Assembly: GCF_000315565.1 (NCBI RefSeq)
Contig: NZ_JH992901.1
Coordinates: 5,362,499-5,394,498 of the forward strand
Reading direction: 5' to 3'
DNA from: Mastigocladopsis repens PCC 10914
GTDB taxonomy: Bacteria; Cyanobacteriota; Cyanobacteriia; Cyanobacteriales; Nostocaceae
DNA length: 32,000 nt
The position numbers and the translations under genes are program-made. Shown piece after piece: positions 13,163-32,000 of the stretch; the stretch's first letter is position 1; each line of letters begins with the position of its first letter. The notes under the pieces were generated by a model, which was not told the DNA's origin, did no database searches, and saw only the letters and a list, made by a program, of their open reading frames with translations.

Positions 13163-15295
13163 TTGATTCGTAAAACTGTATTCCCACAAGAAATTTCATA
13201 CCGTAATAGACGTGAAGCTATGCAAGTTTCGTTACCATCGCTGTTTAAACTACGCCAGGAGAAACCTCAGCCCCTACGACCATCAATGCCTGTGGTGCAA
13301 GAAGCAAACACCGAATTAGGGAAATTACTGGTATTCCTCAATACTAGCCGTAAGGGATTGACCGAAGCAGAAGCTTGCCATCGGCTCAAGCAGTATGGCT
13401 GCAATGAAGTGACCTATGGAAAACCTGCGAAGTGGTATTTCCTACTGCTAAATTCTTTTAATAACTCTCTCATCTATATCTTCATGGGGTTGGCGATTGT
13501 CTCCTACCTGACCAAAAACATGGAGATAACGATTGTGCTGATGCTCCTGGTGATGGTGAGGGGATTACTGTGCTTTGTGCAGGAGTATTATTCTATACAA
13601 ACAGAGGAAAAACTCAAGGCAATGGTGAGTGTGACTGCTACTGTTAGCCGCTTGGACAAACGCTTTAATCGCGAACGGCGTAAAGAAATTCCCATCAAGG
13701 ACTTGGTGCCAGGGGATATTGTTCACTTATCAGCTGGAGACATGATACCAGCTGATGTACGACTACTGTTTACCAAGGATTTGTTTGTCAGCCAAGCAGT
13801 TCTCCTTCAAGAAGCCCTTTCCCTTAAGAAACACAACACTTTGGGCAGTGTGGTTGAGAAGATGGCAATTAGTCACAGTCGCAACAGCAGAGATCCGTTG
13901 GACACGTCCACAGTTGGCTTTATGGGAACAAGCGTAGTCAGTGGCACAGCAATAGCAGTCATAGTTGCAACCGGCAAGCGCACCTGCTTGGGTTGGCTGG
14001 CAAAGAATATGGCTAGCAAACAGGCGTTGACTAGTTTTGGAAAAGGGGTTAACGGTTGGAACTGGAGACTGATTGGCTTGATAGCGGTTATGGTGTCAGT
14101 TGTGTTCCTGCTCAATGGCATTGGTAAGGGGAACTGGGCGATCGCCACTTTCTTAACTCCACAAATATTGCACATGATTGTCACGGTGAACCTAGCACAG
14201 AAAGCCTTAGCGATGGCAAAGCAGAAGGTCATCATCAAGCGCCTGAGTGCCATTCAAAACTTGGGTGCGATGAATATACTTTGTACCGATAAGACAGGCA
14301 TACTGACCCAAGGCAAAATTACTTTGGAGCGATATACCGATATTCATGGTCAAGAAAACGAGGAACCCCTCAAGTACGGCTATCTCAATACTTACTACCA
14401 GACGGGTTTGAAGAACCTGCTAGATGTCGCTTTACTAAAGCACGTAGAACAGAAAACCACCTTAAAACCCGCAGAGGAATACTGCAAAGTGGATGAAGTG
14501 CCCTTTGACTTTGTTCGTCATCGGATGTCAGTGGTCTTGAAATACCAACAGCAGCACATATTGATTTGCAAGGGAGCAGTGGAAGAAATTGCTCGCCTCT
14601 GCACTCACGCCAAATTCAATGGGCAGGTTGTTCCCATGAGCGAGTCCTTGAATCAAGAAGTATTGCAAGTGACACGGAGACTAAATGAAGAAGGGCTGCG
14701 CGTGATTGCTGTTGCTTACAAGGAGGTTTCTCCACCCAAAGATAAGTATGAAATTAAAGATGAAAGCAACCTCATACTGGTGGGTTATCTAGCCTTCTTC
14801 GACCCACCTAACGATAGTGCTGCAGAGGCACTTGCTACCTTTCAAGAGCATGGGGTTAGTGTTAAGGTGATCACAGGCAACAACGATATTGTCACTCGTA
14901 AAATCTGCAAACAAGTAGGACTCTACGTTCACCATAGCGTCCTGGGTAGTGAGGTGGAACGCATGAGTGATGAAGAACTGGCAGACATCGTGGACACCAC
15001 CACAGTGTTTGCCAAAATGTCGCCTATGCAAAAAGCCCGGGTTATCGGTATCCTAAAGCGCAAAGGTCATATAGTTGGCTACATAGGCGATAGCATTAAC
15101 GATGCTGTATCGCTACGAAATGCCAATATTGCTATTTCCGTCGATACCGGTGTAGATATTGCCAGAGAGTCATCAGACATTATCCTACTGGAAAAAAGCC
15201 TAAAGGTTTTGGAAAAGGGTGTCATTGAAGGTCGTCGAATTTTCGGCAGGCGATATTACTCTTGGCGAGACTCATTCCTAGGAAGCGTAGAATAA
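13163..15295 (+). pseudogene. mgtA: mgtA-like Mg2+-type P-type ATPase, degenerate and truncated at the 3' end; the reading frame is still open, with a probable ATG at 13220
   Basis: Collinear with E. coli MgtA as I remember it, through the A, P and N domains. Signature motifs are altered: LTGESLPVEK to LLQEALSLKK, LTPEMLPMIV to LTPQILHMIV with about 6 residues missing in M4, DKTGTLT to DKTGILT, TGD to TGN, GDGINDAP to GDSINDAV. The frame ends at GVIEGRRIFGRRYYSW.., before M5-M10. Confidence 0.7.
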
Positions 15296-18980: not shown

Positions 18981-19444
18981 GGATTGCCTAAAAATATTAT
19001 CTTTGGAGTAGAATAGAAATGGTTGACACACAAAATAATAATTTATTAGCTAGTTACTTATCATAATAACTAATTTTACTCTTGCTATTATCTATAACAA
19101 GCATCAAAAGCTATATGTTTCATAAATAAATCTGATTCACATAATCATTTTTTTAGTTCCGAATCCAATAGGGTACTGATGTCATTAATCACATCAGTTA
19201 ATAAAGAATTAGTTCGCATACTATATTTTTTTAGAAGCTTTTAGCTATTGCCTGTGTTATACCAACAAAAGTTGTTTAATTAATTATTTGACAATGATAA
19301 TAAATTTCAAAATTGGCTAGGTGTTTATCTAGGGCGTATATTAAAATAACAAGAAAGTATGTATTTCCGCTAACTTTAAAATAACAGGTCTTGTTCAAAA
19401 GCAAGAATTTATCAACCAACAAAGGTCGCTTGTTAATTTTAAAA

Positions 19445-19890
19445 TTAAGCCAAATCTTGGTCAATGTAATCGAGCAATACTTCTTGAATTGCTTGTTGCA
19501 ACTCATCAAGGTTCACTGATTTGACTAAGTATTGAATTGCCCCCAAGCTGCGAGCGCGTCGCTCGTCTGCTTTAAAAGCAAACGCAGAAACGGCAATCAC
19601 AGGGATGTGCCGCCAGTTTGACTGTTGCTTTTGTTCAAGTAGGGTGTAGCCATCGATGTCTGGTAACTTCAAATCCAGCAAAATCAGATGCGGGTGGAAG
19701 TCAGCTAAAGCCTGAAAAAACCAGAGCCATTAGCTAAATCGAGAACCTGGTATCCACAATAAATGAGATAATCGTCAAACATTAGCCGATTCGTATAGCT
19801 ATCCTCAACCAGCAATATTCGCGCTGCAGCAACCGATATTTTTATGCTTTTCCTCTTGTCAGCTATTGGACTTTCTTGAACATTAAGCAT
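19445..19890 (-). pseudogene. CheY-like response regulator split by a 1-nt frameshift in a homopolymer
   Basis: Two adjacent ORFs cover the gene: 19705..19890 (..ARILLVEDSYTNRLMFDDYL..LANGSGFF) and 19445..19681 (LDLKLPDIDGYTLL..IPVIAVSAF..). One extra A in the A6 run at 19715..19720 would read GSGFFQALADFHPHLILLDLKLPDIDG continuously. Confidence 0.8.
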
Positions 19891-20091
19891 GAGTTGATCA
19901 ACCTTGAGTCGCCTTAAAAGCGTCCTAGCAACTGTTCTTACTTAATGCGTTACTTAAAGTGTGGCTTTTGCCTATCTGCGCTCTGCAAAATTGGGCAGCA
20001 CTGCCATAGCAATGCTGTTTGAGTTGTAATATGTTCGTGGCAATCGTCTTTTTTAGCCTCTGTTATTGATCGCCTTGTCTATACTCGCATT

Positions 20092-20817
20092 GTGAACAAT
20101 TGGGAAGCACAAGATGAGCCGGAGCATTTAAGGACGATCCGCCCATCTGAAGACCCCCCTAGCAAAGGTTTCTATGGTTCCCGTGTTTTTGCCTTCACTG
20201 ATGACTTAGATGTTACCAATCGCTTATTCCACAACCTTTTGGATGCCGAAGGTCGAGACAGTTGGGGTCGTCCCTTACCACGGCGACAGCCATTAGCGGC
20301 TTTGCGATCGCCGCTAATGGTAGAGAAAGGCTGATTGCTGGTCAATCCTGGCTGCTGTGCCAAGAAATCGGTCACGGTTTGCAACTTCCTTTGAATATTG
20401 GGCGCACCAGTTCCCAAGATACCGGAGTTACCCCAAATGCAGACGTGATTGTTGCTACTGCATCCCTGGAAGTGGGATTTAACGATCCAGAAGTTGGAGA
20501 TGTCATCCAGCACAAAGCACCGCGAGATATGGCCTCATTTCTGCAAAGGAAAGGACGGGCGGGACGACGCAGAACCATGCGACCTTGGACGGTGGTGGTG
20601 CTTTCTGATTATGGACGGGACAGAATCGCCTATCAAGGCTATGATATTTTGTTTAACCCAGTTTTAGAAAAGCGATCGCATCTCATGCTAACATCCGCTT
20701 CGACAATGGCCAGGAACTTGATACGACAATTCGCTTCACCCAGAGACAAGATGGTAGTCCAGCAGCTGTGGGATTTACCCAATCTGTTGACGGTCTAGTA
20801 TTTCGCTTTAAAAAAAT
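20092..20817 (+). pseudogene. Remnant of a large SF2 (DEAD/DEAH-type) helicase, with at least 2 frameshifts and its 3' end cut off by the CRISPR array
   Basis: Helicase motifs V-VI are present (VIVATASLEVGFNDPEVGDVIQHKAPRDMASFLQRKGRAGRR). Coding-like sequence lies in three frames: 20092.., 20262.., and 20654..20817 (HANIRFDNGQELDTTIRFTQRQDGSPAAVGFTQSVDGLVFRFKK). The last codon runs into repeat 1. Confidence 0.65.
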
Positions 20818-23278
20818 GTGCTCAACGCCTTACGGCATCACAGGTTTGGGCAGTGATACCTAATGCAAGTGCTTCGTTCTTAGCTTTGTGCTCAACGCCT
20901 TACGGCATCACAGGTTTGGGCAGTGTTTTGACCAAGACTGAATCCGTTGATAACAACTGTGCTCAACGCCTTACGGCATCACAGGTTTGGGCAGTAATCA
21001 AATTAGCTGAAGACGGGTACGTAGTTACGTGCTCAACGCCTTACGGCATCACAGGTTTGGGCAGTCGGCTATTTGTTTCATGGCTTTTTGAAAAGCAACC
21101 GTGCTCAACGCCTTACGGCATCACAGGTTTGGGCAGTCTCTGCTCAAAGGACAGCGATTGCTTACGTAGGCTTTGTGCTCAACGCCTTACGGCATCACAG
21201 GTTTGGGCAGCTCTGTCGTAAAGGTTACGTTGTTGCCAGAAAAATGTGCTCAACGCCTTACGGCATCACAGGTTTGGGCAGAGTTATTTCATCTCCGTGC
21301 TCATCCCAATGAGAAGGTGCTCAACGCCTTACGGCATCACAGGTTTGGGCAGCATAAGCTGTCAAAGCTTGCTGAGCATTAGCAGAGTGCTCAACGCCTT
21401 ACGGCATCACAGGTTTGGGCAGTTATAGTCAATCTTTTCGTTAAGCTGACTAAAAAAGTGCTCAACGCCTTACGGCATCACAGGTTTGGGCAGTCATTAG
21501 CGCCATTGAGGGCAAGCAGGTAATGGTGTGCTCAACGCCTTACGGCATCACAGGTTTGGGCAGGTGAGTTGCTCACCGATGATGCTGATTTTGGATTGGT
21601 GCTCAACGCCTTACGGCATCACAGGTTTGGGCAGTTTGCGACCGAGTTGAGCGCTGGAAGAAAGAAAGAAAGTGCTCAACGCCTTACGGCATCACAGGTT
21701 TGGGCAGCAATTAAATCGTCATAAAGATATTTAAAACCTTGTCGTGCTCAACGCCTTACGGCATCACAGGTTTGGGCAGCAATGCGAGCACCACTGGCGC
21801 GCCGTGCATCGCCAGGTGCTCAACGCCTTACGGCATCACAGGTTTGGGCAGAATTGAATTGGGTGGTGCTTACAAATTGCCCGGAGAGTGCTCAACGCCT
21901 TACGGCATCACAGGTTTGGGCAGAGGGTACAGGAGTTAATGCCTATCTCGTTCCAAATGTGCTCAACGCCTTACGGCATCACAGGTTTGGGCAGAACCTT
22001 AGCGAGTTATCCTTGCTTCCAACTTCTCGTGCTCAACGCCTTACGGCATCACAGGTTTGGGCAGAAGCCGTTAGTGGTTTGCAAAAGCAAAAGGTCTTGT
22101 GCTCAACGCCTTACGGCATCACAGGTTTGGGCAGCATCAATGCTGAGGGCATACCCATTGCTAGATGCCGTGCTCAACGCCTTACGGCATCACAGGTTTG
22201 GGCAGGATTACATTTGAGCGCTGGCAGTCATTCGTCTTTGTGTGCTCAACGCCTTACGGCATCACAGGTTTGGGCAGCTTAAAACAATTATCGCTTAAAG
22301 AGTATTGCTCGTGTGCTCAACGCCTTACGGCATCACAGGTTTGGGCAGAAGTCGGGGAAGTCGTAAGGTTTAAGCTGAAAATTGTGCTCAACGCCTTACG
22401 GCATCACAGGTTTGGGCAGTTGCACACCATGAGAGACTTTCCGTAAAAAGAATGTGCTCAACGCCTTACGGCATCACAGGTTTGGGCAGCTACCAGAAGG
22501 TGAAGCTAAAGGTATGGACGATTAGTGCTCAACGCCTTACGGCATCACAGGTTTGGGCAGATCTGGATCTCCGGGATCGAGTTTTGATGTGTATGTGCTC
22601 AACGCCTTACGGCATCACAGGTTTGGGCAGTTCCGAGCATCTGTCCCCTATTGTCCAAATTTCTAAGTGCTCAACGCCTTACGGCATCACAGGTTTGGGC
22701 AGAATGAACAAGCGTGAAAAGCTGTATCTGATTAACGTGTGCTCAACGCCTTACGGCATCACAGGTTTGGGCAGTTACCAACTTTCCCCCCAGCTTCTGT
22801 TAACACTTCTTGTGCTCAACGCCTTACGGCATCACAGGTTTGGGCAGTCGCAATCGGAACTAGTTGGCTTCGCTGTCCGCCGTTGTGCTCAACGCCTTAC
22901 GGCATCACAGGTTTGGGCAGGTGTACAAATTCGAGTAAGTTCATAATGCTCCTTTGTGCTCAACGCCTTACGGCATCACAGGTTTGGGCAGCGTCTGAAG
23001 CGACAGAGGACAATAGCGCCCAGTACTAGTGCTCAACGCCTTACGGCATCACAGGTTTGGGCAGTCCATTAAAGGATATACTGTTACCTTCTGTTAAGGT
23101 GCTCAACGCCTTACGGCATCACAGGTTTGGGCAGTAACTTCGTTAGTATAAGTAATAAGCAGATAAAAATGTGCTCAACGCCTTACGGCATCACAGGTTT
23201 GGGCAGACTGGTGCAAATTGCCAATCAGTACGGATGCACTATGTGCTCAACGCCTTACGGCATCACAGGTTTGGGCAG
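20818..23278 (-). CRISPR. CRISPR array of 35 identical 36-nt repeats and 34 spacers of 34-38 nt
   Basis: The plus-strand repeat is GTGCTCAACGCCTTACGGCATCACAGGTTTGGGCAG. I checked every copy by eye and all are identical. Repeat plus spacer lengths sum to 2461 nt, which equals the span. Minus-strand transcription is inferred from the cas operon direction, the AT-rich leader on the cas2 side, and the minus-strand reading CTGCCCAAACCTGTGATGCCGTAAGGCGTTGAGCAC. That reading has a GCC-GUAA-GGC hairpin followed by a ..UUGAGCAC tail, the expected position of a type I 8-nt handle. Confidence 0.97.
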
Positions 23279-23549
23279 TCCGCTTGCTGAAACCCATATC
23301 AGATAACCACCCGGCTCTGATATTACAAGCACCTAGCTTTAGAAAGCAACAAAGTAGCTAAATTTTTACCCAAACTTTACCCTAAGGATAGCAGACAATT
23401 TTAAAAACCCTTGAATAGGCTAACTTTCAGGTCATTTAGAGAAAATGCAAGCACTGATCGTTAGTCTAAAAACCTCGAATAGCAAGCCCAATGGGAGTTT
23501 TGTTCTTGTGTTTTTCTGTGTTAAGACTTCACACTCACAGATCCTTGCA
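23279..23549 (-). promoter_or_regulatory. CRISPR leader between cas2 and the first repeat
   Basis: 271-nt AT-rich non-coding stretch. The candidate sigma70-type promoter on the minus strand is TTGCTT (23349..23344), an 18-nt spacer, then TAATAT (23325..23320), about 40 nt upstream of the first repeat. The promoter assignment is weak. Confidence 0.55.
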
Positions 23550-23843
23550 TCAGACAATGCGGTATGCCTCCTCTGGAAATGACCAAGCACCCGGACGGTT
23601 ATAAGCTGGTATACCAGCAACACACTGGTGCGATAGACGAATCAAAAGTAGAGTATCTTCTGGGGCTAATATCTTTTCTAGCTCCCAGCGTAATTTCTCT
23701 CGCGATCGCTGACTTAGCCAAGAGCGAAAAATAGAGTATTGTATTCGTTCGCCATAGCCTTGGAGTAGGTTGTAAGCTTTGCGCCAACGCTTTGAATCGC
23801 GAATATCATAACAAATGAGGTAGCAATTTTTATGTTCTGCCAT
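23550..23843 (-). CDS. cas2: Cas2
   Basis: 97-aa ORF. YLICYDIRDSKRWRKAYNLLQGYGERIQYSIFRSWL is the classic Cas2 N-terminus. It starts 9 nt after the cas4/cas1 stop. Confidence 0.92.
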   Translation of the reverse strand: MAEHKNCYLICYDIRDSKRWRKAYNLLQGYGERIQYSIFRSWLSQRSREKLRWELEKILAPEDTLLLIRLSHQCVAGIPAYNRPGAWSFPEEAYRIV

Positions 23844-23852
23844 TGTCGCACC

Positions 23853-25520
23853 TCATCGCAGCACCAGATGACCAAACAAACCACCCTCACCAGACCATTC
23901 TTTTTCTAACAATCGCACCTCCAACTCAAACAAACGGCGATAGGTAAGGGAATAACTAGTGACTGGATGTTTCCAACTCTCTTGTTTGCGGCGCTCGTAC
24001 AGTTCAACAAACTTGCGCTTACCAGCTTCGCTCAACCAAACCTGCTCTCCACGAACTTCAAAATCTGCCTTGATATCCCATTGGTTGCGATTAACTGAAG
24101 CCATCACTGTCATGTCTACCAAAGGCACTCGAAATATTTCAATCAGATCCAATGCTAGTGGTGCAGCTTGTGAACGCGGCTGATGGTAAAAACCTAATGC
24201 AGGTTCCAGTCCTACTGTCAAGATGGCATTCATTACATCTTTAAGTAGTAAAGCATATCCAAAACTCAACAGCGTATTAAACCTATCTTTGGGTGGATTG
24301 CGGTTTCTCCCAGCAAAATGCATTCCTTCTGGCACTTCTTTAGAAATCAAACAAGGCAGGGCACTAAAATAAAGAGCAGCAAGGTTCCCCTCCAGTCCTA
24401 ATAGGGATTCCAAAGATTTTGCTTGAGGAACTTGTTTGAGGACAACTTTCATTTGGGCGATTGCCGCCTTCAAACTCTCTGGTGTTTCAGCTTTGCCCCT
24501 AGTCCCTCGCATTAAGAACTTCCTCTGTCCCTGAGCGCGACAAACTACCAGTTTACGGGCTAACTCCAGACAGGTATCAGGGTTGCTAAGAGCAGTATAC
24601 TGACGAATACGGCGTTGGATGCTACCCTGGCGGGTATCAAAACTACCGAGGTAACGTCCACCACCAGAAATAAAATGCACCCCAATTCCTTGATCAGCAC
24701 AAAAGTGCAGTGCTTGGGTGGAGATTTGGGAGAAACTGTGCAACACCAGTTGTCCAACCTGACGAGCAGGAATGGTTTCTACAGGTTGATTGCGACGGGC
24801 AATTTTGATTTGTTCTCCTGTTCTGCCGACAGATGTCCCTGGTTCTAAAACATGAATCACTTGCCGTTCGTCGTCTTCAGGAAACAAGCGAATTGGTTGC
24901 CATTCCCGGTCATGGGCAAGTCTCGCTTCTTCAGGCAAGCAGACGGGAGCCAAGGAACAACGGGCGCACAATCGCTCATTATCAATCACTGGTGGTCGGT
25001 GAGTAGATTCTCTGAGAGTGCGTGCTTGCTGAATTGCTTCGCGAACCGCTGAGCGTCCTGCATCATCTAATGGTACATGAACTAAGACATTATCAGCGTG
25101 GTAGCGAATGCGACCTTCTTTGACTGTGATTCCCAAGGCTGATTCTAAGAGATAGGCATAAGCAAGGATTTGTAGCTTGTCGCTCTGCCAAGCAGATGGT
25201 TGCTTGTTCTCGTCTCGGTGAGCGCGACCGCGTTTGTGTTCGTAGGGAATTGTTTGTCCGTCACGGGTGCGGAGGGCATCAAGCCGACCGCGTAATCCTA
25301 GTTCTTCGCTTTCGAGAAAAAGTTCTTCCCACTCTTCGTCTTCTTGTTTTTCGAGTTCGGTGTGCAGTCTGCGTCCGGCAAAGACTGCGGCATCTTGGGT
25401 GTAAAGTTCTTCAACTTCTTCGAGGTAGAAGAGGCGGGGGCAGTAAGCGAGGGCGTGGAGTGCAGATACACGAATGGTTTCTGGTTTTGTAGAAAATTCA
25501 AGATATTTGAGAGTTTGCAT
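23853..25520 (-). CDS. cas4/cas1: Cas4-Cas1 fusion protein
   Basis: 555-aa ORF. The N-terminal roughly 200 aa is a RecB-like Cas4 with a four-Cys cluster (YCPRLFYL ... CARCSLAPVC). The remainder is Cas1 (VIHVLEPGTSVGRTGEQIKI, ISGGGRYLG, ALLLKDV, GFYHQPR, ALDLIEIFR). Confidence 0.92.
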   Translation of the reverse strand: MQTLKYLEFSTKPETIRVSALHALAYCPRLFYLEEVEELYTQDAAVFAGRRLHTELEKQEDEEWEELFLESEELGLRGRLDALRTRDGQTIPYEHKRGRAHRDENKQPSAWQSDKLQILAYAYLLESALGITVKEGRIRYHADNVLVHVPLDDAGRSAVREAIQQARTLRESTHRPPVIDNERLCARCSLAPVCLPEEARLAHDREWQPIRLFPEDDERQVIHVLEPGTSVGRTGEQIKIARRNQPVETIPARQVGQLVLHSFSQISTQALHFCADQGIGVHFISGGGRYLGSFDTRQGSIQRRIRQYTALSNPDTCLELARKLVVCRAQGQRKFLMRGTRGKAETPESLKAAIAQMKVVLKQVPQAKSLESLLGLEGNLAALYFSALPCLISKEVPEGMHFAGRNRNPPKDRFNTLLSFGYALLLKDVMNAILTVGLEPALGFYHQPRSQAAPLALDLIEIFRVPLVDMTVMASVNRNQWDIKADFEVRGEQVWLSEAGKRKFVELYERRKQESWKHPVTSYSLTYRRLFELEVRLLEKEWSGEGGLFGHLVLR

Positions 25521-25539
25521 ATATGTCTGTAAGGTAATT

Positions 25540-25577
25540 GTGTTTTAGCGCCTTACGACATCAGAGGAAATGGAATT
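25540..25577 (-). repeat. Solitary degenerate CRISPR repeat (psi-R) in the Uma2 / cas4-cas1 intergenic spacer
   Basis: Plus-strand gtgttttagcgccttacgacatcagaggaaatggaat aligned to the repeat gtgctcaa-cgccttacggcatcacaggtttgggcag gives 25 of 36 identities with one gap, and 19 of 21 in the hairpin core. The orientation matches the array repeats. Confidence 0.7.
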
Positions 25578-26153
25578 TTAGGGATTTAACCCAGCTTGTT
25601 GAAAGATTGCGTTAGGGGTAATTTCCAATCCTGGTAGCAAATCATCAGTAATGACTTGATCAAATCGATAAGTAATCGGCAAAGATGACGTAAATACAGT
25701 TACAGTTCTAGCTTTTGTATCAACCACCCAAACACAAGGAACACCAGCTTTGAGATAATCAGTCGCTTTTTCGGCAATTTCGCCAAAAGTTTGCCCAGGT
25801 GAGATAATTTCAATTACTAATTCCGGTGCAACAGGGCAAGCTTCATCTAATAGCCAGTCAGCAGGAAGACGGTGATATGAAATATAGGTCAGATCGGGTA
25901 CAGGCATCCAATCTTGTTGATTTCGTGTTAGTTTGATTGCCCATTCAATAACAACTCGACCTTTTGCTTGTGCCCATGCAGACAATAGTATAAATAAAGC
26001 ACCAGTAGTCGAGCCATGAAAAAACTTTGGTGACATTTCATCGTCTTTATATTTTGGGACAGCTTCACCATTAACAAACTCGTATGTAATATCTCCTTCC
26101 GGGAGTGCAAGAAATTCTTCTAGCGTTAGGCGTTGATTAGAAGACTGAACCAT
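25578..26153 (-). CDS. Uma2 family (DUF820) PD-(D/E)xK endonuclease embedded in the cas operon
   Basis: The likely start is the ATG at 26153 (MVQSSNQRLTLEEFLALPEGDITYEFVNGEAVPK); the ORF-track start at 26198 is a TTG. The core reads VPDLTYISY ... APELVIEIISPGQT ... YLKAGVPCVWVVD, matching the cyanobacterial Uma2 pattern. Confidence 0.8.
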   Translation of the reverse strand: MVQSSNQRLTLEEFLALPEGDITYEFVNGEAVPKYKDDEMSPKFFHGSTTGALFILLSAWAQAKGRVVIEWAIKLTRNQQDWMPVPDLTYISYHRLPADWLLDEACPVAPELVIEIISPGQTFGEIAEKATDYLKAGVPCVWVVDTKARTVTVFTSSLPITYRFDQVITDDLLPGLEITPNAIFQQAGLNP

Positions 26154-26201
26154 AGGTTTTATATGGTAAAAGAGGCTTACTTTTAGTTTAAGTGACAACT
26201 G

Positions 26202-26909
26202 CTAAGTTGCTTTAATGACCGTCCAGGCAGACTCAGGAGGATGAGATAACTCAGAAGGTTCAAGTATTATGTATCTCTGCCAATGAGTACCCTTTGAACC
26301 AACATGATCCACCCAATAGGGTAAAGTTAACAACCCGTTTTCATCTTGTACCAGCCATTGCAATGATTGACCTTGGTAGTTTTTGGGCAACAAGGTAACA
26401 TCATTAACCAAATCTCGGCTTTCTCCTAAACAAAGACCGCCAAAACGATTGATGGAAGCAGGATTGGCAAATGCCATCTGTAAGCGTTCTGCTAGCGTTG
26501 GCTGTGAATTATCCTCCCCAGCATCAACCCAAGTAATAAATCTAACATCAGTCAACAGTTCCTGATAATCTGGTCTGGCATTACTAGGATCATGGATATC
26601 TTTCTTCTTAAAACGGCGAAATGTGCGGATAACAGTAGATTTTTGTGGTTGGGAAACCAGAGCGATCGCCCTTTGGGCGGCTCCCTCCGGGAGCATCGCC
26701 TCCGGCGGGCGCGGGAGCGCCATCGCCAAACGAGTTCCACAGTGCTTGTACCTGTCCATCTCACCAACCATTGAAAGTAGCATTCCATAAACTGTGGATG
26801 GTGGAGGGACTGGGTAAGTTTCAGCGTACTCTCTTGCACGAGATTGACGAAAACTAGCTATAGGAACTTCTACGAACATAGCCAATATTTTCTCAGTGGT
26901 TGTCGTCAT
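26202..26909 (-). CDS. cas5: Cas5 (DevS-like)
   Basis: 235-aa ORF. VEVPIASFRQSRAREYAETYPVPPPSTVYGMLLSMVGE is the Cas5 N-terminal signature. An ATGA overlap links it to the cas7 stop. Confidence 0.85.
   Translation of the reverse strand: MTTTTEKILAMFVEVPIASFRQSRAREYAETYPVPPPSTVYGMLLSMVGEMDRYKHCGTRLAMALPRPPEAMLPEGAAQRAIALVSQPQKSTVIRTFRRFKKKDIHDPSNARPDYQELLTDVRFITWVDAGEDNSQPTLAERLQMAFANPASINRFGGLCLGESRDLVNDVTLLPKNYQGQSLQWLVQDENGLLTLPYWVDHVGSKGTHWQRYIILEPSELSHPPESAWTVIKAT
26661..26727. repeat. GC-rich (about three-quarters G+C by my count) in-frame insert within cas5, small dispersed repeat-like
   Basis: The sequence agcgatcgccctttgggcggctccctccgggagcatcgcctccggcgggcgcgggagcgccatcgcc encodes LAMALPRPPEAMLPEGAAQRAIAL. 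It contains the hairpins ctccc-tcc-gggag and cgcc-tccg-gcgg, plus an internal direct repeat read on the minus strand (gcgatg(gcg)ctcccg twice). Confidence 0.55.
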
Positions 26910-27826
26910 CGAATTAACTCCAATTGAGGTAGCTGTAAATCCCTATCGATGACTTGTTTCATGCTTTGAACAGCTAATTTAATTCCTGGGAAAATATTCA
27001 CCCCCAATTCTTCTAATTCTTCCGCTTCCTGAGATTCTGTAATGGCACCAGCTATCCATAACTCCTGCGGTTCAATATCCTGATTTTTGACCTTTCTTAC
27101 CAATTCCCCAATTGATATTTCTTCTTCATTCTCTTCAAAGCAGTAAAGAATACGGGGAGCGAAGTCATGAGTCCATCGTAAAACTAAACTTTCGGGAGAA
27201 AAATCGTAGAGAAAGCGAGAATGATTACCTGCTACTTCGCCCAGAGAACTCAAACCATCTAGAACTGCAATTATGCGAGATTTATCTTTCAGACGTTCTG
27301 GAGTTAATGCAAATCCATATTGATAACGAGTTGCATGAACCTCAGTTCCATAAAGTGAAGTCCGTCCTTTTTTACCACTAGCAGCATTGAAGGTTAAATC
27401 ACCACTAAAAGGTGTTGTAGAAACAGCACGAGTTACTTCCAAAACTCCTCGTTTAGCTGTTGTTGTACCTTTAGGTGCTTTTTTTCCTTTTTGTTTGGGT
27501 TCATCTGAAGCTTCAACTTTTGCACCCTCTGCACGCATAAAACCTAATACATCATCATCAATAAAATTGGTGTCATCAAAATTTTCATTTTGCCAAATAT
27601 TATCATTGGCATCATCATCCCAACGACGATTAACTTGATAACCGTTGCCAGCAGTCTGCCAGTAGTAGCGTAATGCCCAACGAATTGCCTCAGATGAAAC
27701 TGTTGTATGTACTTCTCCCTTCCAAAGAATTTTTTGTAAGGTTGTAATATTACCTTCGTTTTCTCCACGATTATTGGCAGCAGTACCATACCCAGTCAAC
27801 ACATTTCCAAATAAATGAAACGACAT
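26906..27826 (-). CDS. cas7: Cas7 (Cst2/DevR-like backbone subunit)
   Basis: MSFHLFGNVLTGYGTAANNRGENEGNITTLQKI is a typical Cas7 N-terminus. I prefer the ATG at 27826, which is preceded by AGGAG, over the ORF-track start at 27856. Confidence 0.85.
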   Translation of the reverse strand: MSFHLFGNVLTGYGTAANNRGENEGNITTLQKILWKGEVHTTVSSEAIRWALRYYWQTAGNGYQVNRRWDDDANDNIWQNENFDDTNFIDDDVLGFMRAEGAKVEASDEPKQKGKKAPKGTTTAKRGVLEVTRAVSTTPFSGDLTFNAASGKKGRTSLYGTEVHATRYQYGFALTPERLKDKSRIIAVLDGLSSLGEVAGNHSRFLYDFSPESLVLRWTHDFAPRILYCFEENEEEISIGELVRKVKNQDIEPQELWIAGAITESQEAEELEELGVNIFPGIKLAVQSMKQVIDRDLQLPQLELIR

Positions 27827-27883
27827 TTTTGAAATCTCCTCAAGAATTACAAGCATTTACAAAAATCTAATTTCTTCAAACTT

Positions 27884-29383
27884 TTAAATGCCAATATCAA
27901 TTACATCATCTTCATTAGAAACACCTTTACCTTTATAACTAGCTAACGCCAGCAAAGCTAAATCTCTCGATTTTTTCCAGTTCTTCTCAGCCATCACAAA
28001 CTCCATTAACTCTTCCCAATGTTCCTGTAAAGTGGGTAATTTCCCTGCTCGTGACCAAAAATCAGTAATAAATTCTCGAAATGTATCCGAATTTTTACAT
28101 CTACTTAATCCGGTTCTGATTTTTACAGTGACACGTTCAAAATTAGGAATCTCACCAGGTTTAGTTTTATCAGCAACTTGACCATAAGTATAATTGATTG
28201 CCTCATGGCAAGCTTGAACAAATAGTTTTTCGCGTTCATCTGATTTAACTTTCTGAATCACTTGATATAGCCCTCCCCTTTCGTAAGCTAACTTTTTGAA
28301 TAATTCGTTACTGTTTACTTTTTCGGAAATACCAGAATACCAAGGTTGATTTCTAGCTAAGTTTTCAGCAATTAATTCCTTAGCAAAGCTAGTTACCACA
28401 AAATTACTATCCTTACCTTCAATTGATTTATCTTTCAACCAATCTTTACAAACCTGATAGTTGTGACAAATCTCGTCATTGGCTTTTACCACATACATAT
28501 CTGTCCGAGTTTTTTGTTGAGTTGCCCATGCAACAGTTCCCAAAGTGAAAACTTGGCAACGCGATACACCAAAGTCTCTAGTAATATCTATTGTTGTTTC
28601 TAAAGTCAAAAATTTTAGCCCTGCATCACCTAAACCTGATGCATGAAAATCTTTGTAAGTGGCATATCTTAAGTTTTGATTTTGACGATATTGGGCATAC
28701 TTTTCTAAATCTGTAATTTCCGGAACTACCAATGCATACTGAGCACGTTTATCTCGCAACTTCGAGCGCAGAATGTAGTAATAACAAGCGACGGGAGCAA
28801 ATAACAGAACAAATGCATCTTCTGGAAGTTCTTCAAAAGAAGTATCAGAACTGAAAGCAACATGACGTACCACTGCACCAGGATTTAACCACCCAGCAAC
28901 ACTAATTGGTTTTGTCAGTAATTGCCCGTTTTTATCACAAAGGTTACTGGCAAAATCTTGATAAGCATAGCTTTGTAAGGTTTTATATGTAACCTGAATC
29001 TCTTTTTCCCCCTCACCTAATGATAGAGATTCGGTTTTGGTTCCACTCGATTTATGGGTGCTGGTATGCTGTAAAAAAGTGCCAAGAATTCCCTGGTGTA
29101 CAATTACCTGAGCGTCCTTACGCATAGTTTGTGAATCTAAACCGCGAAGGGCAATTAGTCCATCATTTATTTGGAATGATTCTTTTAATAGCCATTCCAA
29201 AACTGTTTTATCGCTTCTTTCCCAATTTAAGATGACTTTTCGGTTGGAAAGCTGCCAATTTAACCCCTCTGGACGAGCCACTTTTTCTATTTCTAACTGC
29301 TTTAAAGTCATCCATAACCCAGCTAAACCAGCACAATGCAATAAAGTAAAGCTAGGATTACCTAAATCAAACTCTAATTTCAC
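27884..29383 (-). CDS. cas8: Cas8-like large subunit (Cas8a1/Csx13-like of MYXAN-type loci)
   Basis: 499-aa ORF in the large-subunit position between cas3 and cas7. Its GTG start overlaps the cas3 stop (GTGA). The C-terminal third is helical. The family assignment rests on position and on a loose recollection of Csx13. Confidence 0.6.
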   Translation of the reverse strand: MKLEFDLGNPSFTLLHCAGLAGLWMTLKQLEIEKVARPEGLNWQLSNRKVILNWERSDKTVLEWLLKESFQINDGLIALRGLDSQTMRKDAQVIVHQGILGTFLQHTSTHKSSGTKTESLSLGEGEKEIQVTYKTLQSYAYQDFASNLCDKNGQLLTKPISVAGWLNPGAVVRHVAFSSDTSFEELPEDAFVLLFAPVACYYYILRSKLRDKRAQYALVVPEITDLEKYAQYRQNQNLRYATYKDFHASGLGDAGLKFLTLETTIDITRDFGVSRCQVFTLGTVAWATQQKTRTDMYVVKANDEICHNYQVCKDWLKDKSIEGKDSNFVVTSFAKELIAENLARNQPWYSGISEKVNSNELFKKLAYERGGLYQVIQKVKSDEREKLFVQACHEAINYTYGQVADKTKPGEIPNFERVTVKIRTGLSRCKNSDTFREFITDFWSRAGKLPTLQEHWEELMEFVMAEKNWKKSRDLALLALASYKGKGVSNEDDVIDIGI

Positions 29384-31800
29384 TGTTCTGCCCCTACCTC
29401 TTCGCTGTAGCGAATTCTGCCTTTTAGAGTGATGGGATAGAATCCCCTACGTTCCCATTGATAGTAGTCTTTCTCAATTCGGATAGGTACTGACCAAGCT
29501 TGTGCTTCCTGTTTGAACAATTTCATCCGGGATTCATTTATGCCTCGTTTGAGTAATTCTTGTCTGCGCTGTTCGGCAATATCCCATATCGCTGTTTCAT
29601 CCTCACCCAATAACACGGTAATTGTGTATCCACCTTCACGTAGAAAATCTGGGCGATTACACCAGTTATCTTCCAACCAACTTGATTTAACTTGCTCGAC
29701 TTTCTCTGAGTGAAGACGGGCAGCGACTTGTGCTAAATCTCGTTGAGAAATACCTGTTTTACCAGAAAATTCTTGAATTAATTGTTTTCCTGTGGCAAGT
29801 TCTGCCAAATCATAGGGTCGTCCATCATTATTCCAAGGATAAATAATTGCCTGTTTTGCCCCTTCTTCTGGTTTCGTCATTCTGCGGTTCAGTCTTCCTA
29901 AGCGTTGAATTAAAGATGCTGCGGGAGCCATTGCAGATATCAAGAAATCAGCGCTTAAATCCAACGACATTTCACAAACTTGCGTAGTGATAGCCAAGAC
30001 TGGTTCATTTTTTCCAAAGGCTTCAATTACAGCTTTATGCTTTTTAAGTCTATCTTTGTAACGGTAACGACTGTGATAAATTAACGGTTCGAGGCTTAAC
30101 TGTGGTAATTGTTCAGCAAGCTTAATTTTGGCTGTGCGATAAATTTTGATACAGCTTGGTACAGAATTAGTTACCCATAACACTTTCTGCTTATTTCTGA
30201 GAGCTTCTATTACAGGTTGCCAGATTTCCTTTTCATCAAAGTCAGTTACTTCAGGGACATATTTAATGTCGTAACGCTTAAGTTCCTCTAGTTCCTTTGG
30301 TCCTTCGATGGGTTCGTCTAATTCTTCGCCTTGTTCTGCAAGTACTTGACGAATAGCTTGTAACTGTTCGGGAGTAAAACTGGCACTCATCAAGAGAATG
30401 GGCGCACCGCGAAACGCTTTGATAAATTTCAACAATGCACCAAAAAGACGTGTATCGTATGCGTGGACTTCATCAAATACAAAAGCTGATTGAGCGATCG
30501 CCGCCCAGGAGTAAAGCGGCTTGCGATTGTTTTGAATTAAGCCCAATACAGAATCAACTGTACAGACAATCAGTTTCTTCCGCCATGCCTGAAAAGCCAT
30601 TAATCGAGCATCGATACCCTCAGAATCATCAGATTCCCCAGAAAATAGTAGTTCTCGATCCAAATCTGCACGAGAATGCATTAAAGCTGCTTCGATTTCT
30701 GTACCATCTGCATAGTCGATATATCCCTGTGAAGCTGTACCTGTAGTTGGATAAGAAAAAAATAGTTTACGTCCTACTGCCCATTTTTCTCCCCAAGCGT
30801 ATGCACCAATCGTTTTACCTGTTCCACAACCTGCTTTGACAAGCGTTACTCGACGACGCGATTTGGCAATTAACTCTTGAAAGGGACGTAACTTTTGACC
30901 TTTTAGGCGTTGATTGACTAATTTCTGAATATCTTCTTTTGAAAGTTGCAATGATAAGACTTGTTCAATCCATTCCTTGAAGTCTTCTTCAGCTAGAGGT
31001 AACGCAGAACCAGCCAAATCTGCTGCAATTACCGTTGCTTTCACAGCAGCAATAAATTTTTGCTGCTCCCAATCTAGTTGCGATTCAAACTGAATAAATT
31101 CGTTACGTAGATTTATTAAAGCCTTTTGTAATTGTGACTTTGACCAAATTTCTGGAGGTAAGTCTGGTAAGCTTTCAGGTAATCCTAAAGCTTTATGACC
31201 CATTTTCAAAACAGCTTGAAAGTCTGAATGATGGGTATAAAACTTTAATTCATCTCCAATACCTGAAGGAATTTCAGCTATAAATTCTGCGGCTTGATTA
31301 TTTTGATTTATTCCTATTTTTAAATGATGTCCCATTGCTGCCCAAACAGCAATCATCAAGTTTGCATTCTGGCATTGTTCCAACCATTCCCTAAAGGTAG
31401 GTACTTGCAACGCCAAAATACCGCTAATAATTTCATGACGCAGCATTTGTTTGTCTGAATGCTCCTTGGAAAGTGCCAAAATTCGCTTTCTATAATCTCG
31501 GAGCTTTGGATCTGGTGATTTAGGATCAAGAGTTTTCAGGTAAACCATCTCCTGAAAATGTTGATTTGCTTTACCCCAATCATGTAAGTACGCGCCTAAT
31601 CTAACTGTCGTTGCAAAGTAATCTAAATCAATATGTTTTATCCCTAATTGCTGGAGAATGGGCTTACCCAAGTTACCTACCAAAACATCAGCCGCTTGCA
31701 CCACCAAGCTGATATGTCCTGTATACTTTGCAGCGCCTCGTGCTATATCGTTTTTGTTCTCCTCTACTGATAACGATTTAGCCAACAACACCTTAAACAT
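29380..31800 (-). CDS. cas3: Cas3 (N-terminal HD nuclease fused to an SF2 helicase)
   Basis: HD motifs are YLHDWGKANQHF and MGHHLK. Helicase motif I is AGCGTGKT, motif II is FDEVHAYD and motif VI is QRLGRLNRR. I prefer the ATG at 31800 (MFKVLLAKS), preceded by GGAGG. The 19-codon upstream extension in the ORF track overlaps cas6. Confidence 0.9.
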   Translation of the reverse strand: MFKVLLAKSLSVEENKNDIARGAAKYTGHISLVVQAADVLVGNLGKPILQQLGIKHIDLDYFATTVRLGAYLHDWGKANQHFQEMVYLKTLDPKSPDPKLRDYRKRILALSKEHSDKQMLRHEIISGILALQVPTFREWLEQCQNANLMIAVWAAMGHHLKIGINQNNQAAEFIAEIPSGIGDELKFYTHHSDFQAVLKMGHKALGLPESLPDLPPEIWSKSQLQKALINLRNEFIQFESQLDWEQQKFIAAVKATVIAADLAGSALPLAEEDFKEWIEQVLSLQLSKEDIQKLVNQRLKGQKLRPFQELIAKSRRRVTLVKAGCGTGKTIGAYAWGEKWAVGRKLFFSYPTTGTASQGYIDYADGTEIEAALMHSRADLDRELLFSGESDDSEGIDARLMAFQAWRKKLIVCTVDSVLGLIQNNRKPLYSWAAIAQSAFVFDEVHAYDTRLFGALLKFIKAFRGAPILLMSASFTPEQLQAIRQVLAEQGEELDEPIEGPKELEELKRYDIKYVPEVTDFDEKEIWQPVIEALRNKQKVLWVTNSVPSCIKIYRTAKIKLAEQLPQLSLEPLIYHSRYRYKDRLKKHKAVIEAFGKNEPVLAITTQVCEMSLDLSADFLISAMAPAASLIQRLGRLNRRMTKPEEGAKQAIIYPWNNDGRPYDLAELATGKQLIQEFSGKTGISQRDLAQVAARLHSEKVEQVKSSWLEDNWCNRPDFLREGGYTITVLLGEDETAIWDIAEQRRQELLKRGINESRMKLFKQEAQAWSVPIRIEKDYYQWERRGFYPITLKGRIRYSEEVGAEQ

Positions 31801-32000
31801 TTCTACCTCCCTTACAAGGCAAGAAATATCCACAACCAAGGTGTCTTTTGCCACCAATCCCTAACTGCTGTAACTTTAAAGAATCATCATCACTTAAGCC
31901 TGAAACTTCTGTTGTAAAACCAACAATGGTATATCGTTTGACTTTAAGCGTTTTACGACTAAAAGCACCTTTTTTATCTACCGGAATAGAAAGTTTCCCT
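31793..32000 (-). CDS. cas6: Cas6 C-terminus (partial; the gene continues beyond the right edge)
   Basis: Not in the ORF track. The minus-strand frame is open from 31999 to the TAA at 31795..31793. It reads GKLSIPVDKKGAFSRKTLKVKRYTIVGFTTEVSGLSDDDSLKLQQLGIGGKRHLGCGYFLPCKGGRNV. GIGGKRHLGCG fits the Cas6 C-terminal glycine-rich loop. The stop overlaps the cas3 ATG by 8 nt. Confidence 0.6.
   Translation of the reverse strand, partial: GKLSIPVDKKGAFSRKTLKVKRYTIVGFTTEVSGLSDDDSLKLQQLGIGGKRHLGCGYFLPCKGGRNV

Follow-up and report, generated by a model that had tools for sequence, protein, structure and literature searches.

Why does a predicted nuclease gene of the Uma2 (DUF820) family lie in the middle of a cyanobacterial CRISPR-Cas (clustered regularly interspaced short palindromic repeats and CRISPR-associated) operon, and does it serve the CRISPR system or only live within it? 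The question is raised by a 32,000-nucleotide stretch of Mastigocladopsis repens PCC 10914 (contig NZ_JH992901.1, positions 5,362,499 to 5,394,498 of the forward strand; hereafter the window), in which an intact Uma2 gene occupies the junction between the effector genes, ending with cas5, and the adaptation genes, beginning with cas4-cas1, of a type I-MYXAN locus. A first-pass annotation of this DNA had offered two explanations, a selfish insertion or a recruited accessory nuclease. The former is the better supported, because the same cassette is found at unrelated sites, the closest cas loci are without it, decayed copies exist and other cargo occupies the same place; the latter is possible but rather unlikely. 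On balance, the Uma2 gene is probably an intact, mobile and self-contained cassette, lodged in a permissive cargo site derived from a CRISPR array and kept for its own function, and not a component of the CRISPR machinery.

Close relatives of the gene are found in many other places. The closest database homologues are 69-97% identical, 189-220 aa long and all from Nostocales. Nine such proteins were looked up in their genomes: two lie at the cas junction (P0010, P0060), and seven are solo copies in unrelated contexts (73-92% identity), of which P0002 and P0008 adjoin purH, P0017 and P0035 are flanked by a Mg-chelatase-like gene and a sigma-factor gene, and P0034, P0089 and P0016 adjoin HxlR, Psb27 and ParDE, respectively. 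No conserved partner gene stands beside the solo copies looked up. Several solo copies are syntenic across genomes, both those adjacent to purH (L007, L008, L098-L101) and those adjacent to the chelatase and sigma-factor genes (L001, L176), which indicates that they are stable residents. Nostoc sp. FACHB-190 carries a junction copy together with a solo copy, 74% identical to each other, and concerted evolution of the two within that genome was considered and is not seen.

A scan of metagenomes anchored on the same Uma2 clade gave a similar picture. It returned 79 loci, of which 20 were too short to judge, and among the 59 evaluable copies 47 have no cas gene within 4 kb, nine lie at intact junctions, two beside cas4-cas1 stumps and one near an unrelated cas1, so that most copies of the clade are not next to cas genes. 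Two loci, L104 (2467-3785) and L109 (4001-5690), hold two tandem intact Uma2 genes followed by cas4-cas1 fragments of 30 and 134 codons, respectively, with no cas genes upstream of the tandem pair; these are decayed cas loci in which Uma2 has outlived its neighbours. A phage origin of the gene was also considered, and was rejected on finding no tblastn match to Uma2 in 50,697 phage records.

What travels is more than the reading frame. When junction and solo copies are aligned with their flanks, DNA homology extends from a HIP1 site, the cyanobacterial palindrome GCGATCGC, some 45 nt ahead of the ATG to about 10 nt past the stop codon, and the leader so delimited, which reads GCGATCGC-CTAAACTAAAAGTAAGC.TCTTTTACC.ATATAACACCT, precedes junction and solo copies alike (e.g. 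L019 7585-7632, L007 9955-10000). In the window the HIP1 site is mutated, and the remaining leader (CAGTTGTCAC TTAAACTAAAAGTAAGCCTCTTTTACCATATAAAACCT) spans the entire 48 nt gap between cas5 and Uma2. Among 95 distinct clade copies, 34% have HIP1 within 75 nt upstream, compared with 5% of random windows, mostly at 40-59 nt from the Uma2 ATG. In L017, where the gene has been deleted, the footprint consists of HIP1 joined directly to the last Uma2 codons, and HIP1 may take part in the movement or loss of the cassette. Neither target-site duplication nor terminal repeats were seen when junction, solo and empty sites were compared.

The leader also bears on how the gene is expressed. A −10-like box (TAAAAT, TAAAAG or similar) lies between −45 and −14 in 44% of the same 95 copies against a background of 6%, a seven-fold enrichment, and in the window it reads TAAAAG at 26180-26185; the conserved leader with this box suggests that the cassette may carry its own promoter. 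Consensus scans found no intrinsic terminator in either flanking gap and no promoter in the upstream one, the single promoter-like site (25602-25575) overlapping the Uma2 stop and the total of scan hits matching chance expectation; the window leader has no stable fold (z 0.06). Read-through from the cas genes is plausible, because no terminator was found. The first-pass annotation had reported neither terminator nor promoter in the gaps: as to terminators this stands, but as to promoters it is made doubtful by the conserved leader and its enriched box. Nor are the gaps featureless, since the 48 nt are a leader that travels with the gene and the 57 nt on the other side hold a degenerate CRISPR repeat and a hairpin. 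The unit comprises a HIP1-bounded leader of about 45 nt, an open reading frame (ORF) of 576 nt and about 10 nt after the stop. Its expression probably comes from the leader, from read-through of the cas promoter, or from both.

The divergence of the gene is partly decoupled from that of its neighbours, as far as synonymous sites can tell. Synonymous divergence (dS) of Uma2 and of cas4-cas1 is 0.31 and 1.04 between the window and L019, 0.28 and 0.79 between the window and L092, and 0.37 and 0.94 between the window and L015, values near 1 being imprecise, and the relation is reversed between L040 and L045 (0.36 for Uma2, 0.12 for cas4-cas1). Uma2 is the least diverged gene of the whole locus when the window is compared with L019, and the distance of the window gene from solo copies in other genomes (dS 0.25-0.34) is no greater than that from junction copies. 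The ratio of nonsynonymous to synonymous divergence (dN/dS) in solo copies, 0.09-0.19, is similar to that in junction copies. In a neighbour-joining tree, built on a recombining gene, known junction and solo copies interleave in the Nostocales part of the clade; its basal junction-only branches are a sampling artefact, since those copies were fetched by their cas neighbours. Mosaic proteins are seen in one clade alignment (A4), where L015 and P0060 share the termini of the window protein and differ in the central segment (residues 47-80), and L022, L029 and P0112 have a different C-terminal type (residues 155-191); such segment swaps between near-identical proteins indicate gene conversion among paralogues. 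Taken with the divergence values, this pattern would be accounted for by repeated exchange between sites, through gene conversion or re-insertion, laid over partial co-inheritance with the adaptation module.

Two Nostoc plasmids, pCENA543a (L174) and pNSMS101 (L175), one of them mobilizable (MOBF), also carry complete I-MYXAN loci that are related to the one in the window. Uma2 is absent from the junction of both plasmid loci, and the degenerate repeat is still present. Plasmid-borne loci of this kind could account for the greater divergence of the cas genes, relative to Uma2, between strains.

How often, then, does the gene occur at this junction? Related loci were collected from an alignment of Cas4-Cas1 homologues and a scan of one genome per species, and the best 80 of at least 536 confirmed loci, all cyanobacterial, were searched with the Cas proteins of the window and an iterated Uma2 hidden Markov model (HMM). 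Junction counts rest on the 73 loci with both sides of the junction on the contig, and because these loci are related by descent the percentages are not counts of events. The expectation in the first-pass annotation that cas5 normally runs directly into cas4-cas1 is true of only 28 of the 73, if a gap of less than 250 nt is taken as a tight junction. Full-length Uma2 genes, one or more per locus and in every case on the cas strand, are present in 16 of 73 (L014, L015, L019, L022, L027, L029, L032, L035, L040, L041, L045, L047, L067, L077, L078 and L080), so that the recurrence which that annotation proposed to look for does exist, and the gene is not an incidental insertion in the sense of being absent here from all related loci. 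Two loci hold only HMM-detectable fragments of Uma2 (L086, L089), seven have an internal CRISPR array of 3-66 repeats, three have two repeat-like elements, and 17 have other content.

Decay and loss are visible at the same place. In addition to the fragments in L086 and L089, there are remnants in four loci classed above as tight or as having other content: L012 has a Uma2 gene with an internal deletion, and in L017, L018 and L021 nothing is left of the cassette but its last codons and 3′ flank. This gives remnants in six further loci and raises the share of loci with a full gene (22%) to about 30% when remnants are counted. The closest cas loci, with Cas proteins 85-96% identical to those of the window, have an empty junction that retains the degenerate repeat (L010, L011, L043, L030). 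Uma2 is therefore dispensable for the cas locus, given these empty relatives and the deletion footprints and fragments elsewhere. At least five Uma2 lineages are found at the junction, with two or three tandem copies in L029, L062 and L080, which would point to several independent arrivals.

Uma2 is not the only gene to have settled here. Other junctions carry an IS1 transposase (L056 8503-9270), MNT/HEPN (HepT) toxin–antitoxin pairs (L064 2450-3116; L071 7466-8629, also with DUF6883; L081 9196-9540), a GNAT acetyltransferase (L073 9279-9785) or XisH (L084 9513-9932), and the boundary between effector and adaptation modules is thus a permissive hot spot for cargo, of which Uma2 is the commonest occupant. 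The modules themselves appear to have been recombined at this boundary: Cas4-Cas1 is 73-91% identical to that of the window across loci whose effector modules fall into three variants, with Cas3, Cas7 and Cas5 about 50-96%, 40% or 29% identical to the window (the last without a Cas8 match), and conserved adaptation modules beside three effector modules indicate module shuffling at a repeat-bearing boundary. Uma2 genes of other lineages were seen at further edges of cas loci, in L061 (12143-12703) right after cas2 and before the array, and in L068 (2552-3100) and L081 (1166-1774) some 1-2 kb before cas3, close to the upstream end of the mapped cas set; these positions fit a defence-island habit of the family.

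The origin of the site can be read from the 57 nt gap downstream of the gene, which is native cas DNA when compared with the empty junctions of L010, L011, L013, L023, L030, L034 and L043. In the window a degenerate CRISPR repeat (psiR) begins 8 nt past the Uma2 stop codon and can be locally aligned to the repeat of the locus's own array (TTCCTCTGATGTCGTAAGGCGCTAAAACAC against AACCTGTGATGCCGTAAGGCGTTGAGCAC). Across the loci psiR lies 20-45 nt upstream of the cas4-cas1 start, is found within 120 nt of it in 48 of 80, and is about equally common without Uma2 (34/60) and with it (14/20). In L048, L053, L058 and L061 a full array between cas5 and cas4-cas1 closes with this element, its most degenerate repeat, and since psiR ends full arrays in relatives, the junction is an internal-array site that has collapsed in most loci to the terminal repeat. 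Such internal arrays, of 3-66 repeats, are additional to the array after cas2 and give some related loci a two-array architecture; they were located at L048 9218-9957, L053 9379-9966, L058 8048-9959 and L061 5226-9952, and also in L050, L030 and L073. By its sequence and position, the psiR of the window is the relic terminal repeat of a lost internal array, and it is this insertion-tolerant site, between the effector and adaptation modules, that the cassette would have entered.

Searches of Rfam gave no match of psiR to CRISPR-DR33 at E≤1, and no known RNA family at the junction at E≤1 bar a spurious match to a long non-coding RNA. Repeat-like sequence lies on both sides of Uma2 in L029, L032 and L121. 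The idea that Uma2 is a ‘giant spacer’ integrated by Cas1-Cas2 was rejected for the window, which has no repeat upstream of the gene; repeats on both sides occur in only these three loci, and 640 bp greatly exceeds the length of a spacer. With its 3′ half, psiR also pairs with the bases directly before the cas4-cas1 ATG, forming a conserved hairpin of about 11 bp. Across 22 loci, 82% of cells are paired, whereas sliding the partner lowers the share to 32-52%; compensatory changes are seen at three pairs, and the covariation score is better than that of 498 of 500 shuffles; RNAalifold of the region upstream of cas4-cas1 returned only a 3 bp repeat stem, the longer hairpin coming from the explicit pairing test. 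The hairpin may serve as a site for Cas6 or control translation of the adaptation genes, and psiR itself may regulate cas4-cas1.

The protein gives every sign of being intact. It matches the Pfam profile PF05685 with 102.6 bits (cutoff 27) over profile positions 1-170 of 172, so that the family assignment proposed from the sequence passes the curated threshold over the full length. In support of the ATG start, more than 100 homologues of 191-192 aa open with MVQS or MTQ; the ORF list extends the frame to a TTG at 26198, and the DNA concerned is conserved instead as the non-coding leader. Residues E25, D87, E115 and S118 do not vary in either of two clade alignments (A4 and A6), K129 does not vary in A4 and hardly does so in A6, and Y133 is likewise conserved across the clade; from the superfamily, catalytic roles would be expected for the signature residues. 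The PD and ELVIEIISPGQ motifs noticed at first reading are indeed conserved and the frame is open, which agrees with the earlier judgement that this is not a decayed passenger.

Structure modelling, which was run on database proteins, gave an AlphaFold model of moderate confidence (pLDDT 70, pTM 0.71). Its best Foldseek matches are DUF820 structures only (3ot2, 1wdj, 9y1l and 6okh, E 3e-9 to 8e-8), all four also found by profile search from the sequence, and on this moderate-confidence model the fold is restriction-endonuclease-like, as in 3OT2 and 1WDJ; Foldseek found no structural match to a characterised homing enzyme. The protein also matches the PADLOC PDC-S03 models (E 5e-20), which means that its family is already listed among candidates for phage defence. 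In the literature searched, biochemical data were reported for no member of the Uma2 family, and ‘nuclease’ is thus a prediction from the fold. Neither the 48 nt nor the 57 nt gap contains an adjacent antitoxin ORF, as a type II toxin–antitoxin pair would have.

Several observations weigh against regarding the gene as a passenger. Sixteen full copies in 73 junctions, compared with five elsewhere in about 1.27-1.28 Mb of the same loci, is far above random placement, and 11 of the 59 evaluable metagenome copies (~19%) sit at this one junction. Every junction copy is co-oriented with the cas genes and shows purifying selection (dN/dS 0.09-0.30), the distances between Uma2 copies correlate with those between their cas4-cas1 neighbours (Mantel r 0.68, p 2e-4, 20 junction loci), and the gene is retained beside the adaptation module together with three different effector-module variants; enrichment, orientation, selection, correlation and retention would all fit a gene kept over the long term for a function linked to CRISPR. 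They are also what speaks for a recruited accessory nuclease, which would aid adaptation by generating or trimming prespacers, or act as a second effector or abortive-infection nuclease: the same position and orientation recur in 22% of related loci, 30% with remnants, the catalytic residues are intact, the family is a PADLOC phage-defence candidate, and Uma2 has been treated as accessory in Microcystis type III-B and seen in type V-A loci (PMC11855584, PMC9067536). We nevertheless hold this explanation to be rather unlikely. Between 70 and 78% of related loci, the closest ones included, do without the gene, about 80% of clade copies are away from cas genes, as are seven of the nine proteins looked up, and the gene persists beside decayed cas genes. 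The same site holds unrelated cargo in other loci, synonymous divergence is decoupled from that of the flanking genes, and none of the 120 closest Cas4-Cas1 homologues shows a fusion of Uma2 to Cas proteins. Whether or not Uma2 is present, the Cas4 domain is intact, so nothing is replaced by the gene; the more specific idea that Uma2 compensates for a degenerate Cas4 was rejected for the same reason, Cas4 motifs and the Cys cluster being invariant in both groups.

A free-standing homing-type endonuclease, which would cut the allele lacking Uma2 (at the empty junction or at HIP1) and be copied in by recombinational repair, would explain the patchy yet site-specific distribution, the empty sites in the closest relatives and the decayed copies, and the fragments and footprints are what a cycle of gain, decay and loss would leave. 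That no gene of the locus is less diverged than Uma2 between the window and L019 points the same way, as do the preference for HIP1 at the 5′ edge (34% against 5%) and the L017 footprint, which starts right after HIP1. Also in its favour are a known PD-(D/E)XK homing endonuclease of cyanobacteria, I-Ssp6803I, and the polyploidy and frequent natural competence of these bacteria. Nearly identical proteins are found at many unrelated sites, however, and a single long recognition site is unlikely for a cassette present at several or more of them, although HIP1 could be a short target; the syntenic solo copies look like stable residents, the cassette shows no target-site duplication or terminal repeats, and the model matches no characterised homing enzyme, so that we think homing improbable. 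Even more doubtful, to our mind very unlikely, is an addiction or safeguard module, that is, a toxin-like nuclease held in check by CRISPR in the manner of CreTA, or penalising deletion, and so stabilising the cas locus. The position of Uma2 directly beside a degenerate repeat, the repeat-like sequences on both sides in L029, L032 and L121, and the classical toxin–antitoxin pairs at the same junction elsewhere would suit it, as would the published description of the family as a solo toxin (PMC2701414) and the proposal that toxin–antitoxin or DUF820 genes of the hox operon act as its stabilisers (PMC4963859). Against it, psiR is as common without Uma2 as with it and is a terminal array repeat, on which grounds a CreTA-like pairing of repeat and gene was rejected; the sequence after the repeat, inspected by eye only, has no convincing match to the Uma2 leader, clean deletion of Uma2 leaves the cas genes intact, and solo copies exist with no cas genes nearby. 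There is also a small chance that Uma2 is a CRISPR-linked module in an array-like context, its transcript resembling a pre-crRNA (CRISPR RNA precursor) released or stabilised by Cas6 at the terminal repeat, in keeping with its place directly upstream of that repeat in nearly all loci and with the repeats that flank it in L029, L032 and L121. If this were true, expression of a toxin-like DNA nuclease would be tied to the state of the CRISPR system, the gene could be a backup effector, an abortive-infection arm, a locus safeguard or a supplier of DNA fragments to Cas4-Cas1-Cas2, and the hairpin before cas4-cas1 would belong with the gene to a single regulatory unit.

The mobile cassette kept for its own function is the reading that we prefer. 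In it, the Uma2 protein would probably be autonomous, a solo toxin-like or defence-island DNA nuclease under selection for itself, and would be neither a subunit nor an obligate partner of Cascade or of Cas4-Cas1-Cas2.

The surrounding locus is complete (Table 1). All genes and the array, identified with NCBIfam, Pfam and Rfam, lie on one strand, which agrees with the first-pass placement of Uma2 inside a type I cas operon, between effector and adaptation modules and on the strand of every cas gene. Membership of the I-MYXAN class rests on NCBIfam models above cutoff for Cas5, Cas8a1/Cmx1 and Cas1_MYXAN, and the gene order is the one expected, cas6-cas3-cas8-cas7(DevR)-cas5(DevS)-cas4/cas1-cas2 followed by the array, as in the annotated plasmid loci. 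The tight couplings reported for the neighbouring genes were found in the sequence, cas6 and cas3 overlapping by the 8 nt ATGTTTAA, cas3 and cas8 sharing GTGA and cas7 and cas5 sharing ATGA, as were the flanking gaps of 48 nt and 57 nt. For cas3 the start is likely the ATG at 31800, the ORF list beginning at a TTG at 31857.

Table 1. Features of the type I-MYXAN locus and its Uma2 cassette, in window positions
Feature	Position	Strand	Evidence or remark
cas6, 3′ end (cut by window end)	31793-32000	-	frame translation ends GCGYFLPCKGGRNV and stop; Cas6/Cmx6 at the same place in related loci
cas3 (HD nuclease and helicase)	29380-31800	-	Pfam Cas3_HD, Cas3-like_C_2; NCBIfam cas3_core E 2.6e-52
cas8a1/Cmx1 (Csx13), large subunit	27884-29383	-	NCBIfam TIGR03485 E 2.4e-98, TIGR03486 E 2.1e-41
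cas7 (Cst2/DevR)	26906-27856	-	NCBIfam TIGR02585 E 1.5e-37
cas5 (Cmx5/DevS)	26202-26909	-	NCBIfam TIGR02586 E 2.4e-42; Pfam Cas_Cas5d
Uma2 cassette leader	26154-26201	-	fills 48 nt gap; same leader precedes copies in other genomes
Uma2/DUF820 gene, PD-(D/E)XK nuclease fold, 191 aa, intact	25578-26153	-	PF05685 E 2.2e-29
Degenerate CRISPR repeat (psiR)	25540-25569	-	local alignment to the window's own array repeat
Hairpin, psiR 3′ half (25551-25561) with 25523-25534	25523-25561	-	minimum free energy -10.9 kcal/mol, z -3.1
cas4-cas1 fusion (adaptation module)	23853-25520	-	NCBIfam cas1_MYXAN E 1.9e-177; Pfam Cas_Cas4, Cas_Cas1
cas2	23550-23843	-	Pfam CRISPR_Cas2 E 1.5e-18
CRISPR array, 35 repeats of CTGCCCAAACCTGTGATGCCGTAAGGCGTTGAGCAC	20818-23279	-	Rfam CRISPR-DR33, 35 matches above gathering score; TRF

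Past the distal end of the array, window positions 19000-20800 contain fragmentary ORFs only, among them one of 178 aa (20262-20798) that is similar in sequence to the C-terminal portion of helicases of the DEAD/DEAH type (...GRAGRRR...) and looks like a gene remnant. Further away, a P-type ATPase-like ORF of 710 aa (13163-15295) has a TTG start, seems short for its family and may be truncated or a pseudogene.

Considering known systems, the find is an instance of kinds already described, namely DUF820 genes in cyanobacterial operons and toxin-like or defence genes in cas loci. COG4636/Uma2 was described as a ‘likely solo toxin’, abundant and forming paralogue cassettes (PMC2701414). The window protein is no different from the rest of the Uma2/DUF820/COG4636 family (PF05685; 3OT2 Ava_3926, 1WDJ TT1808, 6OKH and 9Y1L), having the same PD...E-x-x-S...K signature, size of about 190 aa and fold, and its clade behaves as the family was described, with cyanobacterial expansion, mostly solo copies and tandem paralogue cassettes; only its position in a type I-MYXAN operon is unusual. 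The nearest parallel in position may be the DUF820 gene sll1222 inside the Synechocystis hoxEFUYH operon (Kopfmann et al. 2016, PMC4963859), likewise co-oriented inside a functional operon, with toxin–antitoxin modules nearby and recurrent in several strains, but there the operon encodes a hydrogenase and no repeat relic is reported, whereas the junction type of the window also hosts CRISPR arrays. Within CRISPR loci, Uma2 has been found between cmr4 and cmr5 of Microcystis type III-B (Cmr), where it was listed as accessory (PMC11855584), and near type V-A Cas12a loci (PMC9067536), in both cases without a shown function; these are other CRISPR types and positions, and neither report analysed recurrence or mobility. 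With CreTA and other toxin–antitoxin modules in cas loci the window shares a small toxin-like gene in a cas operon beside a degenerate repeat, but its gaps hold no antitoxin ORF, psiR is independent of Uma2 and no spacer-like match to the leader is seen. Homing genes such as phage seg and mob and I-Ssp6803I are similar in their patchy intergenic presence, empty sites, decayed copies and nuclease fold, and differ in that Uma2 occurs at many unrelated sites and resembles no characterised homing enzyme in structure or sequence. PDC-S03, whose models the window protein matches, is a candidate only, with no defence phenotype on record in the literature searched. In that literature, of which coverage was incomplete, no description was found of Uma2 at an I-MYXAN effector/adaptation junction, nor of a degenerate repeat and hairpin upstream of cas4-cas1.

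The Uma2/DUF820 proteins are among the largest uncharacterised nuclease-fold families of cyanobacteria, with tens of copies per genome, and this junction offers a natural experiment on them, related cas loci being found with the gene, without it and with decayed copies, and solo paralogues in the same genomes. The I-MYXAN effector/adaptation boundary, as a former internal array and a hot spot for cargo, bears on how cas modules are shuffled, and the terminal repeat kept as a hairpin before cas4-cas1 bears on a possible regulation of the adaptation genes. If Uma2 is a passenger only, genes within cyanobacterial cas operons should not be read as accessories without comparative evidence.

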